A stretch of DNA of 60,099 nt from an uncultured Candidatus Peribacteria bacterium. Lineage in GTDB: Bacteria > Patescibacteriota > Gracilibacteria > Absconditabacterales > Absconditicoccaceae. The stretch lies in NCBI GenBank assembly GCA_964424505.1, contig CAYRIQ010000001.1, forward strand, positions 1 through 60,099, read 5' to 3'. The position numbers were made by a program, and so were the translations under genes. Numbering within the stretch: position 1 is the stretch's first letter; each line of letters opens with the position of its first letter. This document shows positions 12,612-53,695 of this stretch, piece after piece. The notes beneath the pieces were generated by a model that was not told where the DNA came from, ran no database searches, and saw only the letters and a list, made by a program, of their open reading frames with translations.

Positions 12612-13023
12612 ACTTATATTGTGGAAAGGTGAATATATGGAAATAGTAATTCCTCAATCTGTCCATCCTTTTCTAGTCTCTATACCACTGTTTAAATTTT
12701 TTAATTTGGGTAAGAATATGCGTATGTATTTCTCATCCATTTTTTTTTATTTTTTCAAAAGTTTTTTCAAAAACACGAGACTGATATCCATTGAGATATG
12801 ATCTTCACAAAACAACATCAATAATCCGATTATTTAGTTTTTGCTCGATATTTTGAAACATATAATATATAGTACATAAAATATTTATTTTCATAAATAC
12901 TATAAAAAAAACCTTGTAATTATCAAACCAAAAAACTAACAATAAAATTGTAATATATCTCTACGAGATGTAATTTGAACTACGTTCGTAATTCATCGTA
13001 ATTGCCAATTACGCGAATCAGAC

Positions 13024-13215
13024 AGGAGGAATCCATCCTTTTCGCTCCAGCGTCATTCCGGCAGCTTGCCCCGCAGAACTGCGTGGGTTAAGTGTTGCAG
13101 CCGGAATCCATACTACAGAAGCCAAAGAGTCTTTCAGTATGGATTCCCTCTTCCAAACATTGGCGCGGGAATGACGTCTAAGGGTTTATGGATTTCCCCT
13201 CAGGTTTAAGGGAGA
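13024..13215 (+). repeat. GC-rich composite palindromic element E2
   Basis: Nested inverted repeats: gcgtcattcc/ggaatgacg, ggaatccatact/agtatggattcc, ccgcag/ctgcg. The modules are collinear with the element at 53561-53695 read on the minus strand. Confidence 0.75.
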
Positions 13216-15374: not shown

Positions 15375-15402
15375 CTTGCAATCGCCTTCATTTTTTCTAT
15401 AA
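15375..15402 (+). promoter_or_regulatory. Promoter-like TTGCAA-16 nt-TATAAA ahead of the rplJ leader
   Basis: Hexamers read directly. The roughly 150-nt leader contains a gtagg/cctac stem, but an L10-leader identity is not established. Confidence 0.3.
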
Positions 15403-15554
15403 AGCTGACATAAACACCCAAGACAGTAGGTTGCTCAAAGCATAAAATATCAATTCCTACCTAGGTTCACATACAGATATAATTTTTTGTATACGAGCCC
15501 TAAAAAGGTCTTTTTTGTTTTGAAAGCAATATTTAATTATTTAAGTTGTATAGT

Positions 15555-27980: not shown

Positions 27981-28053
27981 ACTTTGTTGCAAGTTAAAAC
28001 ATTAATATTTCAATCTTTCAACTTTTCAATATTTTAACATTCTAACTTTTTAA
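27981..28053. repeat. Periodic-word hairpin H4 3' of rpmA (TTTCAA/TTGAAA-type words, 8-nt period)
   Basis: atttcaatctttcaacttttcaatattttaacattctaac. TCAA recurs every 8 nt. Confidence 0.65.
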
Positions 28054-28292: not shown

Positions 28293-28365
28293 TGCAAAAG
28301 TGGAAACATGGGAAAGTGGAAAAATTAAAAAATCTTTCAACCTTTCAATCTTTCAATGTTAGAAG
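28293..28365. repeat. Periodic-word hairpin H5 3' of rpmF (GTGGAAA words, then TTTCAAC words)
   Basis: aaagtggaaacatgggaaagtggaaaaattaaaaaatctttcaacctttcaatctttcaatg. Confidence 0.65.
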
Positions 28366-49588: not shown

Positions 49589-50923
49589 TTATAATTTTTT
49601 TAGTAAATCAGTAATTATGCTATTGTACACGTTCATACCTGTATCTGTGAGTCTGAGTTTAGTTCCATCTCGCTCAATTAATCATTTTTTTTTATAAATA
49701 GATAACAAGGATTCGTAGGTAGGTACAAGCATAGGAATAAATTTTTTAAGATCAGCGATTCCTTCCCTAGTTCTGAGTCTGAGAAAAAATTCTTCAATTA
49801 ATATATCTGATTTATTCAGCACATGGACTTCTTTTTCATCGACTCGATGTCATTCAAGATATTGCTTGATATCTCATGTATTAGTTCGGCGAATGCCGAA
49901 GGGTTGAAGGGTTGAAGCGTTGAAATGTTGAAATGTTTTTGGATTGTTTATTATTCATTGCTGATTAAAAAATGAGCTCGCAGACAACCCCAATCCAAGA
50001 TAGTTTTCCATATTCCAGTAAATCATATTGTGTATAGATGCTTTACCTGCTGCAGCAAAATTTGAGATTTCATATCTCATAAGTCATGCATCTTCGATCA
50101 TTTCTTTCAAGAGCAAAAATTCCTCCATAATCTCTTCATCAGTTCCATAGTATGTCGGTGGATAAGTTACCTCACCCCCAACCTCTCTCCCATTTTTAGA
50201 GAGGAGTGACTTTCCTTCTCCATAGCTTGCCCCGTATATTTCACTGCGGGGTAATAGGGAGGGTGAGGGTGGGGTAGTATTGCTTAGTCCTTCTAGTGTA
50301 TATAAGGAAATACTGTCAACATATCCGCTTGCAAGAAATTTTTGAAAAAAATCACGTTTAAATTCATGTCGCAATTGTTTGAAACCATTTTTGCTGACTT
50401 GGAATTTTCCAAATGCAATAAAATCAAAATTGAAGACATTGTTTCCTTGTTTGAGTTTGATGAGTGATCTCAGAAACTCTACAATACTTCAGAAATTATA
50501 TGCTCTTCAAGCCAGTTTTAGAACTTCATCATCAAAACTTTGAATGCCAAAACTATATCTTAGTCTAGAAAGTTTTGGATATTTTTTATTCAATGTTTGT
50601 ACAAAGGTCAAAACTTCTTCTTCTGGATATGGATTTAATTCGATACTGAGTTCTGCTAAATCTTCAAGATTAAACTTGGTTTTTATGTATTCGATGATAT
50701 CAATGATCCTTGTAACTCACATTCTACTAGGTGTTCCTCATCCAAAATATAATGTTTTCAATGCTTTGTCTACCAAAGTATTTGCATAATGATCGATTTC
50801 TTTTTTCAATGCTATAATATAGTCATCGATTAAGGTATCAGAAGAATCTACTGGCATACTATTGAAGGAACAATAAGCACATTTGCTTGTACAAAAGGGA
50901 ATATGAATATAAAGACTCAACAT
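49589..50923 (-). CDS. hemW: Radical SAM heme chaperone HemW / HemN-like protein carrying two insertions
   Basis: LYIHIPFCTSKCAYCSF, YFGGGTPS, YEISNFAAAGKASIHN. One frame over 445 codons. It contains GC-rich element E3 and an 8-mer periodic tract. Confidence 0.85.
49898..49935. repeat. Periodic-word tract H7 inside the hemW CDS (four TTGAA words at 8-nt spacing)
   Basis: gaagggttgaagggttgaagcgttgaaatgttgaaatg, translated on the minus strand as ...TFQHFNASTLQPF.... Confidence 0.6.
50166..50277 (-). repeat. GC-rich palindromic element E3, in frame inside hemW
   Basis: gttacctcaccccc ... gggtgagggtggggta terminal inverted repeats with internal hairpins cctctct/agagagg and ccccg/cgggg. Read as NTTPPSPSLLPRSEIYGASYGEGKSLLSKNGREVGGEVT. 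Confidence 0.8.
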
Positions 50924-51830: not shown

Positions 51831-51857
51831 AGCTAAACAATTACGTTGATAAATATA

Positions 51858-53533
51858 TTATACTGTGTATACAATTTTATCGCCAATTTCCAACTCATTT
51901 TTTTTCTCAAAAGTTCCAATGACTTGGTTTAGAGAAATCTCATCATAAATATCAATTTCCGGACAATGTAATCGTGGCCTGACGAGAAGAGTTACCTCAC
52001 CCCCGACCCCTCTCCACTCTCCCGCAGATATTGACGGGACAGGCTCCGAGAGGGGTGATTTTCCCTCTCCATAGCTTGCCCCGTATATTTCACTGCGGGG
52101 TAATGGGGAGGGATTATGGGTGGGGTAATTAATTTCCATAATATACCCGATTTCTTCTTTTCATTTCCTCGCTTCTTCTTGCTCAAGTGTTTGTCTATTT
52201 ACGAGCTGTTTTATTTTAGTAAATCTTGCTCTGATCGTAGTATATTCCACTTTTTTGTCTAATTTACTTGAAGCAGCCAAAGGCTCGTCGTGATATTCAA
52301 ACAACGCGACATTATCAAATCTTGTTTCGTTGACAAACTTCATGAGTTTATCAAAATCTTTCTCCGTTTCGCCGGGGAAACCAATGATAAGATTCGTTCT
52401 AAGAAATCTAACCGGAAATATTTTTTTAATCTGATTCAAAAAATTTTGAATATATTTTTCATCGTATGCCGAATCATTTTCGAAATCTCTAATTTCTTCA
52501 TTTCATTTGAAATTATCGTTTCTCAAATTGTCGGCATTCCTCAATCATCAAAAAGAACTGCGTTTCACTTGCTCTTTTTGCGGTTGAGGGAAAAATCTTC
52601 CCATTCTTTTCAAGACCGGCGAACTGATGTGTTGTAAAGGGATATCAAAATATGGTATAAACTTTTTCAATTTTTTTAGCTCCTCGATTTGACGTAATGT
52701 TACGATGTCGGGATACAAGTAGAGGAGTCTATAGGTGAAATCACCTTTTATTCTGTCTAATTTTTTCAATAGGTCCAATAATTTCGGCTCCCCATAAAGA
52801 TCAGTTCCATATCTCGTAGTGTCTTGTGCGATAAGAATAATTTCTTGTATTCACGCATCAATCATCTGTTGTGCTTCAGTGAGAATTTTTTCTATGGGCA
52901 AAGATTGCTGTTTTCATCTGATCGCTGGGATGATACAAAAGGTACAATGATTATCACATCATTCGGCGATTTTGAGATATTCAAATTTTTGTTCCAGGTT
53001 GGTATATACCCTTGGCGAGTTAGCAAATTCAAAATCTCCAAACGTTTTACTATCGTATCATTGCATAATATTTTTCAACGTTACTGTATTCAAATCTCCT
53101 CGTGATAAGTAATGAAGGTTTCAAAGTGGTTTTGTTACCTCACCCCTACCGCAGGCAGGCCCGGCCCCCCTCTACGGAGTGGAGATGGGTGATTTTTTAT
53201 CTCCCTCTCCATACCATGGGGAGGGATCAAGGGTGTGGTAAGACTTACTAACTTTTTATAGTACTGAACTGCACATCAGAGCAAGTATACGGTCTTCTTA
53301 GCTTTCAAAAGTTTTTTCACAGTTTCGTCAGCTTCATCTCTGCCTGAAGAAATAAATCCACAAGTATTCACAAAAACTATTTTAGTTTTCGGATCAAAAG
53401 GATCGGTAAAATAGTTCAATTGATAGTCAGGAGTCTTGATACTTATATCAAAAAGTCTACCAAGAAAATATTGGCTATCGACCAGATTTTTGGTGCATCA
53501 GAGGTTGATGAGTGAAAAATTTAGTTGTTGCAT
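51858..53533 (-). CDS. rimO: Ribosomal protein S12 methylthiotransferase RimO, interrupted: carries two GC-rich elements and a frame break in one of them
   Basis: The N-terminal frame (MQQLNFSLINLGCTKNLVDSQ...) stops at TAA 53135 inside element E5. The rest ([35 protein letters not shown], TRAM tail) is in another frame, open from 53171 to TAA 51858. Confidence 0.8.
51991..52128 (-). repeat. GC-rich palindromic element E4, in frame inside the rimO TRAM region
   Basis: About 85 percent identical by eye to E3, plus an extra tcccg...gcggga hairpin. Read as YPTHNPSPLPRSEIYGASYGEGKSPLSEPVPSISAGEWRGVGGEVT. Confidence 0.8.
53134..53241 (-). repeat. GC-rich palindromic element E5 in the rimO inter-domain linker, coincident with the frame break
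   Basis: Same termini (gttacctcacccc ... gggtgtggtaag). It lacks the 30-nt ccccg hairpin module and contains a C6/G6 run at 53165-53170. Confidence 0.8.
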
Positions 53534-53560: not shown

Positions 53561-53695
53561 AAACAAATCCTCACTCTCCCCACTTTAGCGTCATTCCCGA
53601 CTTGATCGAGAATCCAAGCTCAATAGTATGGATTCCCATTTTCATGGGAATGACGCCGAGACGGGGAGGGTTGTCAAGGGTCGGGTGAGTTTGTT
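53561..53695 (-). repeat. GC-rich palindromic element E6 between uvrB and rimO
   Basis: cctcactctcccc ... gggtcgggtgag termini. Inner gcgtcattccc/gggaatgacgc and gaatcca/tggattc stems shared with E2. Confidence 0.75.

Follow-up and report, generated by a model that had tools for sequence, protein, structure and literature searches.

E3 is a short palindromic element that lies within a hemW-like gene on a 60,099-nucleotide stretch of contig CAYRIQ010000001.1 from an uncultured Candidatus Peribacteria bacterium. This whole 60-kb stretch is referred to here as the window, and all positions are counted from its first letter. The window comes from an Absconditabacterales (SR1) genome, and the close homologs of its hemW are all from Absconditabacterales/SR1. 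The gene and the parts of the element are as follows.

49589..50923, minus strand: hemW-like radical S-adenosylmethionine (SAM) gene (HemN family); 444 codons in genetic code 25, nine in-frame TGA codons read as Gly
50165..50275, minus strand: E3, in-frame insert of 111 nucleotides (nt), codons 217-253 (TPPSPSLLPRSEIYGASYGEGKSLLSKNGREVGGEVT), defined against empty alleles
50167..50179, no strand assigned: left terminal inverted repeat, TTACCTCACCCCC as written on the plus strand
50182..50204, no strand assigned: hairpin 1, CCTCTCTCCC-ATTTTTA-GAGAGG
50214..50263, no strand assigned: hairpin 2, CCTTCTCCAT...GGGAGGG, with a nested hairpin in its loop
50230..50251, no strand assigned: nested 22-nt hairpin in the loop of hairpin 2, CCCCGTATATTTCACTGCGGGG; common to copy B only (52079-52100)
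50267..50277, no strand assigned: right terminal inverted repeat, GGGTGGGGTAG

Genetic code and identity of the hemW gene

TGA is a sense codon for glycine (code 25) across the whole window. Read with table 11, the minus-strand hemW frame at 49589-50923 contains nine in-frame TGA codons. We assign glycine to TGA because one of these codons occupies a glycine position of the GGGTPS motif of HemN/HemW, where YFG*GTPS of the window protein aligns with LHWGGGTPT of E. coli HemN. The SR1 lineage is described as reading UGA as glycine in the portion of PMC8080830 that cites Campbell 2013. With code 25 the open reading frames (ORFs) of the window are long and densely coding (hemW, rimO, nusA, mutL, rpoB/C and others), whereas table 11 yields fragmented ORF lists. 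The continuity of the hemW frame across E3, which had been claimed in an initial annotation made from the sequence alone, was confirmed, but only under code 25.

The hemW product has Radical_SAM and HemN_C Pfam domains as well as the CxxxCxxC and GGGTPS motifs. Its top NCBIfam family is HemW (TIGR00539), at 153 bits against a cutoff of 205.4, with the match split into two stretches by insertions. An AlphaFold 2 model of the product matched the HemN structure 1OLT with an E value of 7.5e-14 and a template modeling (TM) score of 0.63. When the window protein was searched against PDB sequences, its alignment to HemN covered the N-terminal 147 residues only, and the insertion point is not placeable on a solved structure by sequence.

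Anatomy of the element

E3 is a palindromic element with two hairpins and inverted ends (TTACCTCACCCC/GGGTGGGGTA) that occupy 50167-50277. The hemW peptide across it reads SISLYTLEG-LS-NTTPPSPSLLPRSEIYGASYGEGKSLLSKNGREVGGEVT-YPP-TYYGTDEEIMEEF, in which YPP is followed by TYYGTDEE, and the predicted tryptic peptide of the insert is SEIYGASYGEGK, preceded by R. The first 11 nt of the left end repeat (TTACCTCACCC) are the same in two further window copies, B and C. Most elements from other contigs have TACCTCACCC, with variants such as CACCTCACCC (L046) and ACCTCTCCCC (L132); L numbers are our handles for DNA loci and contigs, and P numbers for proteins. The basic form of hairpin 2, CCCTCTCCAT-NNN-ATGGGGAGGG, is present in copy C, in L003 and in at least 80 metagenome loci. 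The nested 22-nt hairpin is missing from orthologous elements of other genomes, in which the peptide is PSPLHGEG.

The guanine-plus-cytosine (GC) content of E3 is 52%, compared to 32% in the rest of hemW; the window overall is 31.6% GC. Just one of the six frames of E3 is open end to end. The mRNA strand of the element folds at -47.8 kcal/mol (z = -3.8), and 0 of 200 shuffled sequences folded as well. The end motif TTACCYCACCC has seven matches in the 60 kb (three pairs and one stray single-mismatch occurrence), compared to 0.39 expected. No Rfam family matched at E3 at either the gathering or the E-value threshold, and neither an intron nor a ribozyme match was obtained. E3 is also present in an independent Joint Genome Institute (JGI) assembly of the same organism, Ga0207193_1000344 (L001), which is 99.94% identical. 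An assembly artefact was considered as the source of E3 and rejected, as the element is found in two assemblies and in many orthologs.

Two copies in rimO

The three pairs of end motifs define E3 itself (copy A) and copies B and C, both of which lie in the neighboring rimO.

51858..53533, minus strand: rimO-like gene hosting copies B and C (TIGR01125 RimO, E 1e-86)
51992..52128, minus strand: copy B, read in frame within the TRAM (C-terminal) part of rimO; its hairpin 1 contains a second nested hairpin
53135..53241, minus strand: copy C, located in rimO after the N-terminal domain and before the radical-SAM core; frame-broken in the window

Copies A and B are 94% identical over 65 nt, though hemW and rimO are non-homologous. 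Copy B is read in the same element frame as E3 and gives PSPLPRSEIYGASYGEGKSPLS...GGEVT in RimO (peptide context ...NPSPLPRSEIYGASYGEGKSPLSEPVPSISAGEWRGVGGEVT...). That the same DNA in the same frame yields this peptide in a second protein, together with the disorder predicted by AlphaFold, supports the earlier proposal that the peptide is dictated by the palindromic DNA rather than by protein constraints. In L001 and in another species (L003/L006), rimO is one ORF, and read-through of copy C there uses a partly different frame of the element (TPPLIPPHGMEREIKNHPS...WRGAGGEVT). In the window, copy C has a 4-nt deletion at 53144, within a small hairpin, where L001 has four extra bases (CAGG on the coding strand); rimO is a single ORF of 559 amino acids in L001 and is divided into ORFs of 132 and 402 amino acids in the window. 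This difference may reflect strain variation, a recent pseudogene or an error of assembly. Directly past the rimO stop codon, at 51853-51856, the window and L001 differ by another 4-nt indel (ATAT).

The insertion site in HemW homologs

We compared 120 HemW homologs over the interval between SLYTLE and D(D/E)EIMEEF and counted empty alleles among the closest 70. An empty allele is present in 24 of these 70, as a constant 14-residue NIKDKPCPxIYYGT (context ENIKDKPCPxIYYGT), whereas the window HemW has 50 residues in the same interval, a net insert of 37 codons after (G/N)(I/L)(K/S)(D/N)x. The alignment fixes the insertion point at window positions 50165-50275. The view in the initial annotation that E3 adds a peptide of about 40 residues between LYTLEG and TYYGTDEE, and that this segment is an insertion, was therefore correct, with 37 codons as the exact size against empty alleles. 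Its expectation of a short E-x-G-T turn in homologs held in part: the more distant Gracilibacteria-type homologs, which have 16-23 residues at the site, include ELF(P/H)GS (E-x-x-x-G-S/T), but the nearest empty alleles lack the motif.

An E3-family element is found at the same point in P0003, P0004 and P0064 (TPPSPSPLHGEGKSPLSTEWRGAGGEVT), which are 62-77% identical orthologs, and a remnant is found in P0036. The family is represented at this HemW site by four miniature copies, one remnant and three copies that bear a DUF559 domain (P0025, P0029 and P0031), all within the same order. The same point also holds unrelated palindromic elements of at least three families, namely SHFD...DFSPxLEMT (from GTCATTTCGA...TCGAAATGAC), KDGLDGL...PSIPSNPS and DPGTRT..., and P0042 has a tandem repeat there. 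The states of the site are scattered on a neighbor-joining tree of the masked alignment, a crude tree without support values, and sister sequences differ in state: P0032 is empty and P0037 filled, while P0001, which corresponds to the window protein, and P0002 contain different families. Because the states are patchy on the tree, sisters differ and unrelated families share one point, the site is best read from these alignments as a hotspot of repeated invasion and turnover, or as the sole place where insertions survive, and not as an ancestral protein segment. A homologous segment in orthologs from unrelated lineages had been named beforehand as the finding that would point to an ancestral feature. 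Orthologs with the element do exist (P0003/P0004/P0064, P0036 and P0025/29/31), but all belong to the same order and their distribution is patchy.

Predicted structure and translation of the insert

An AlphaFold model was computed for P0001 with 43 homologs; relative to the window protein, P0001 lacks 22 N-terminal residues and has W wherever the codon is TGA. The mean predicted local distance difference test score (pLDDT) was 84.4, compared to 26-44 in the insert (P0001 residues 192-234). The insert is flanked by a strand (residues 182-187) and a helix (240-256), both with pLDDT above 85. The model thus places a low-pLDDT loop between strand and helix and predicts that the E3 insert is disordered and lies outside the folded core. 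We infer that E3 is translated rather than removed, because all copies except copy C of the window keep the frame open, even by different routes. The insert is most likely neutral and does nothing for the host.

DUF559 cassettes at the same sites in other SR1 genomes

The HemW orthologs P0025, P0029 and P0031 are 540-576 amino acids long, and the site that holds E3 in the window holds ...PPQPSPLHGEGVKLP-(about 125 amino acids)-PPRSTEWRGVGGEETC... in these proteins. The middle of this insert is PF04480 DUF559 (E 4e-34), located between ...PSPLHGEG... and ...WRGVGGEE.... Pfam matches within the insert were DUF559 and MTES_1575 only, with no Hint and no transposase domain. In the DNA of L006, the DUF559 ORF lies between hairpin 2 (CCCTCCCCATTACATGGAGAGGG) and hairpin 1 with the end repeat (GTGGAGAGGGGTCGGGGGAGAGGAAAC). 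This ORF is AT-rich like its host, and a TGA encodes the Gly of the conserved PIG.Y motif.

The closest relatives of the DUF559 segment (68-75% identical) are SR1 fragments with the cassette in frame in other host genes. The cassette is found in RimO at the exact site of window copy B (P0126 and P0127), and P0127 also has the nested SPLAEPVPQKSAGEWRG of copy B. It is in frame as well in LeuRS (P0129-131), in RlmD/RumA (P0132-134) and in a further host (P0128). L129 is an SR1 contig syntenic with the window, and the ends of its rimO cassette align with window copy B at an identical position: the window reads GGAGAGGG-AAAATCA-CCCCTCTC where L129 has the DUF559 ORF. Sites B and C of rimO were filled in every genome read. 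Because the same ends enclose a DUF559 ORF at identical sites, comparison of these sequences indicates that E3 and copy B would be ORF-less versions of the DUF559 cassette.

DUF559 and hairpins beyond SR1

We examined seven DUF559 genes from non-SR1 contigs (GC 0.30-0.55), five of which were picked without regard to their termini. A regular expression for hairpin plus end missed visible cases, and the DUF559 flanks were therefore read by eye. Hairpins of the form (A)CCTC(A/T)CCCC..CCCCTCTCC-loop-GGAGAGGGG..GGGGTGAGGTA are located within approximately 100 nt upstream of all seven genes, and usually downstream too; the core form of this hairpin class is CCCTCTCC-loop-GGAGAGGG-GGGGTGAGGTA. These hairpin-flanked genes sit between housekeeping genes such as trpB/trpA and holA/sigma factor (L135:601-981, L132 and L136).

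DUF559 is also widespread inside larger proteins. A cassette query against 1.84 billion representative proteins returned 24,678 relatives at E <= 1e-3, and about 55 of the best 150 are at least 300 amino acids long with an internal DUF559 stretch. In RecG, an in-frame DUF559 segment separates the two halves of the DEAD domain; such segments were also observed in MurD, HsdR, type IIG restriction-modification enzymes and a DUF1156 methyltransferase, the last of which also holds a GIY-YIG insert. In the four read (RecG, MurD, HsdR and the DUF1156 methyltransferase; P0253, P0260, P0248 and P0265), peptides that derive from hairpins, such as PSPLAPLPEGEG and PLSLRERGLGGEG, lie on either side of DUF559. 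In the MurD protein P0260, DUF559 is preceded and followed by long tandem arrays of hairpin peptides. DUF559 has been classified with Vsr and the homing endonuclease I-Bth0305I (PMC3424549).

A scan of metagenomes with the hairpin-2 motif found at least 80 loci (L007-L086), and both end repeats are present in 49 of the 67 matches that could be evaluated. Most matches are microbial-mat contigs of approximately 50% GC, judged to be non-SR1 by base composition, and a few are SR1 coding insertions. The element in the mat contigs (for example, L019:211-233 and L021:1300-1322) is approximately 130 nt, near-identical between copies, high-copy and often at contig ends, and has the ends and two hairpins of E3 plus outer inverted repeats (AGGACTTTCGC...GCGAAAGTCCT). 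By its sequence, it looks like a recently active relative in another phylum. An alignment of 14 simple copies shows no variation in the stems and ends, whereas the loops and central spacer vary, a pattern that would fit protein recognition of sequence plus shape. Covariation analysis was dropped, as invariant stems left nothing to count. Small hairpins nested in loops are recurrent.

Single hairpin modules (PLPIVWRGG and PSPLHGEG) were also seen in frame within a SAM methyltransferase, a restriction-modification-type protein and a large membrane protein in three standard-code contigs (L024, L030 and L079), so translated hairpin inserts are not confined to SR1. On a contig of 60% GC labelled Candidatus Peribacteria, an intergenic element (L005:4765-4873) with the ends TTACCTCACCCCC / GGGGGGTGAGGTTAT lies directly after a terminator-like hairpin. 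A scan of genome contigs with GTTACCTCACCCCN{35,65}TCTCCATA, in a collection that excludes the window's own genome, gave four loci, one of them (Caldivirga) by chance. A profile of the element peptide gave five weak matches in a 5.8-billion protein set, too few for a census, among them RimO fragments with the element.

Other repeats in the window

Two further features are repeats or repeat fragments.

49892..49966, minus strand: second, unrelated in-frame repeat insertion in hemW, codons 320-344 (NQQGIINNPKTFQHFNASTLQPFGI), made of TTGAARNN octamer repeats
53663..53689, no strand assigned: solo fragment of the element's right end, GGGGAGGGTTGTCAAGGGTCGGGTGAG, in intergenic DNA between rimO and uvrB

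The initial annotation overlooked this second hemW insertion, as it did the use of TGA as a sense codon and the DUF559 link. Empty orthologs read F/L-GNK at the second site. The TTGAARNN octamer-run family has nine matches in the window compared to 0.03 expected, including intergenic copies at 2172-2208, 28009-28037 and 28336-28356. In orthologs, this second hotspot holds other families (LPMQNVECRMQKIF...LNSELW and IPCHSEAELKNIS...PSGWQAM).

Other GC-rich palindromes, of the type GTCATTCC...GGAATGAC, are present in intergenic DNA at 53590-53654 and 13011-13123. The 13011-13123 island and the nested hairpin of copies A and B have the 11-mer AGCTTGCCCCG in common, suggesting an exchange of small hairpin modules among composite elements. 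At approximately 52400-52460 (peptide NLRNDNFKGNEEIRDFEN), the window RimO has 18 residues more than the L006 ortholog (RNADNLRNDNFKGNEEIRDFENDSAYDE versus RNTDDSAYDE), which may be a further small insertion. Elsewhere, a ribosomal protein L10 leader (RF00557, 49.5 bits) is found at 15399-15525 on the plus strand, upstream of rplJ, and no other Rfam family in the window exceeds its gathering score. No transfer RNA genes were found in the 60-kb window.

Origin of the element and alternative explanations

We propose that E3 is a non-autonomous, ORF-less miniature of a selfish DUF559 cassette that is inserted in frame in hemW and translated as a tolerated, disordered loop, and we give this explanation a probability of about 0.68. 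The cassette would have inverted ends (TTACCTCACCCC ... GGGGTG(A/G)GGTAA) and a conserved group of GC-rich hairpins, which in the full-length form would surround a gene for a DUF559 (Vsr-like PD-(D/E)XK) endonuclease. Loss of the DUF559 ORF may have given rise to the miniature. The DUF559 nuclease may have spread the element, whether through homing-like copying of it into empty alleles or through hairpin-directed cuts, and selection would retain only in-frame, stop-free insertions at permissive loops. In hemW, the 111-nt miniature would have settled in the loop between the strand SLYTLE and the helix DEEIMEEF, to be transcribed with the gene. A length divisible by three and exactly one frame free of TAA and TAG would turn it into a Pro/Gly/Ser-rich, presumably disordered surface loop of 37 residues that the enzyme tolerates. 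The occupancy of the same sites, the patchy distribution and the ORF-less remnants resemble the dynamics of homing endonucleases, by analogy, with no intein or intron.

Several observations weigh against this explanation. A tblastn search with the DUF559 domain found no match in the 60-kb window or in a 21-kb stretch of the 84-kb L001 contig. The mat-contig miniature is highly repeated, and no DUF559 gene was seen in the flanks that were fetched; some other enzyme could move the miniature. The hairpins are dispersed repeats in these genomes, with extra copies in L128, for example, and some of the adjacency to DUF559 may be coincidental. The direction of events might be the reverse, with the ORF inserted into a pre-existing hairpin element. 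The filled alleles were found through intact proteins, so the uniformly in-frame result is partly one of ascertainment, and the HemW tree has no support values.

The main competing explanation is that E3 is an ordinary MITE (miniature inverted-repeat transposable element) moved in trans by a conventional transposase, such as a TA-targeting IS630/Tc1-like enzyme, with DUF559 as a passenger or as a secondary invader that prefers hairpins; selection would still account for E3 being in frame in hemW. E3 has terminal inverted repeats, and both of its ends can be read as TA + CCTCACCCC...GGGGTGGGG + TA, but we saw no unambiguous target-site duplication. The high-copy version of approximately 130 nt with outer inverted repeats in the mat contigs of approximately 50% GC, where DUF559 is not nearby, speaks for such an origin, and insertion sequence (IS) elements that target repetitive extragenic palindromic (REP)-type hairpins are known (PMC3184786). 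However, no transposase was bounded by E3 ends in any locus fetched, in four distinct SR1 host genes the DUF559 ORF is found at one fixed internal position, with hairpin 2 on one side and hairpin 1 on the other, and hairpins accompany 7 of 7 DUF559 genes elsewhere, which is beyond the expectation for a passenger. We consider a conventional transposase unlikely on balance.

Two other explanations are much less probable. The segment could be a fast-evolving, lineage-specific HemW linker without a mobile-DNA origin, or an insertion since recruited by the host, for example as a docking loop or as a regulatory structure in the mRNA. Across all SR1 HemW proteins the site does vary in length, several lineages retain related inserts, and the two rimO sites are always filled in the genomes read. 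Against these stand the 24 orthologs without any insert, the replacement of unrelated families by one another at the site, a base composition foreign to hemW, the predicted disorder of the insert and the occurrence of the same DNA at 94% identity in a non-homologous gene and in intergenic DNA of other contigs. The linker version is already contradicted by these repeat copies, and we regard linker and recruitment together as highly improbable. Removal of the element from the mRNA, in the manner of an intron or by RNase processing of a long stem, or bypass by the ribosome as for the GC-rich byp elements of yeast mitochondria, is barely credible. The mRNA strand does fold into a long stem that joins both ends (-47.8 kcal/mol), and the 4-nt deletion that breaks the rimO frame in copy C would be harmless if the element were removed. 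Yet the sister assembly L001 has an intact, in-frame copy C, and every other copy keeps the host ORF and avoids TAA/TAG, a needless constraint on an excised sequence. The full-length form must be translated through the element to make the nuclease, 111 nt is below the size of group I and II introns, Rfam gave no family, intron or ribozyme match, and the analogous Rickettsia elements are translated (PMC2229807).

Relation to known systems

In-frame translated palindromic repeats are known as Rickettsia palindromic elements (RPEs), in Wolbachia and as BRE and ERIC fusions (PMC2229807 and PMC3184786). RPEs are translated and tolerated, and a gmk product that carries an RPE is active (PMC2229807). 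E3 is like the RPEs in being a palindromic repeat of roughly 100-150 bp with terminal inverted repeats and a stem-loop, found in an AT-rich reduced genome either in intergenic DNA or in frame in conserved genes that have empty-site orthologs. It is unlike them in being GC-rich in an AT-rich host that uses code 25, in belonging to a family that spans phyla and in having a nuclease-encoding, full-length partner at the same sites. We set E3 apart from RPE-1 to RPE-8 by its host (SR1, not Rickettsiales) and its GC-richness rather than by comparison with RPE consensus sequences, and it had no Rfam match. The RPEs were reportedly described by Ogata and colleagues in 2000 and 2002, and we know of no enzyme that mobilizes them.

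Other systems share some of these features. As in REP/REPIN-RAYT systems, short hairpin repeats are scattered through the genome and also border a small gene of nuclease type, and stems are conserved while loops vary. However, the flanked gene is DUF559 (PD-(D/E)XK, Vsr-like) in 7 of 7 cases, with no Y1 (IS200/IS605-like) transposase seen, and E3-type elements are often inside genes and read in frame, whereas REPs are extragenic by definition. Like homing endonucleases and inteins, the cassette places a nuclease ORF in frame in host genes (HemW, RimO, LeuRS, RlmD, RecG and MurD) at the same site across lineages, with a patchy distribution and ORF-less remnants, and DUF559 is grouped with a known homing endonuclease fold (I-Bth0305I, PDB 3r3p). 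In contrast to inteins and homing genes, no Hint or intein splicing domain (Pfam) and no intron RNA (Rfam) was found, and the insert apparently remains part of the mature protein; neither inteins nor free-standing homing genes are characterized by palindromic DNA ends, and E3 itself has no ORF. With the bacterial MITEs (Nezha, Correia, ERIC and BRE) and the small nested repeats of cyanobacteria, E3 shares inverted ends, a length of approximately 100 nt, a stem-loop, occasional ORF fusions or internal insertions and nested hairpins. The sharing of ends with an autonomous element, which is characteristic of MITEs, is also observed, as the same ends and hairpins enclose the DUF559 ORF in L006 and L129. 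In MITEs the partner would be an IS with a DDE transposase, whereas here the partner ORF is PF04480 DUF559, and no unambiguous target-site duplication accompanies it.

Our literature search found no description of the E3 element, of such repeats in SR1 or the candidate phyla radiation (CPR), or of a link between DUF559 and palindromic repeats, and this link appears to be undescribed. A broader possibility, toward which we are more doubtful than inclined, is that DUF559 and the conserved CCTCACCCC/CCCTCTCC hairpins form an unrecognized, widespread class of selfish elements. Such a class would be RAYT/REPIN-like with a Vsr-like enzyme, would invade proteins in frame without an intein or intron, and would decay to miniatures such as E3.

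Inserts of this kind have consequences for how SR1/Gracilibacteria proteins are read. Several are present per gene, and they push family-model scores below curated cutoffs, as for HemW and RimO here. They split gene calls under the wrong genetic code and can pass for lineage-specific domains. To our knowledge, no enzyme has been tied to in-frame palindromic repeats that would account for how they move and land in proteins. If our explanation is true, DUF559 would be the first candidate mobilizing enzyme for such "protein-coding palindromes". The ends of E3 occur both empty and enclosing a nuclease ORF at identical sites in orthologs, and the pairing of nuclease and hairpins recurs across phyla, which makes the question of their mobility testable.

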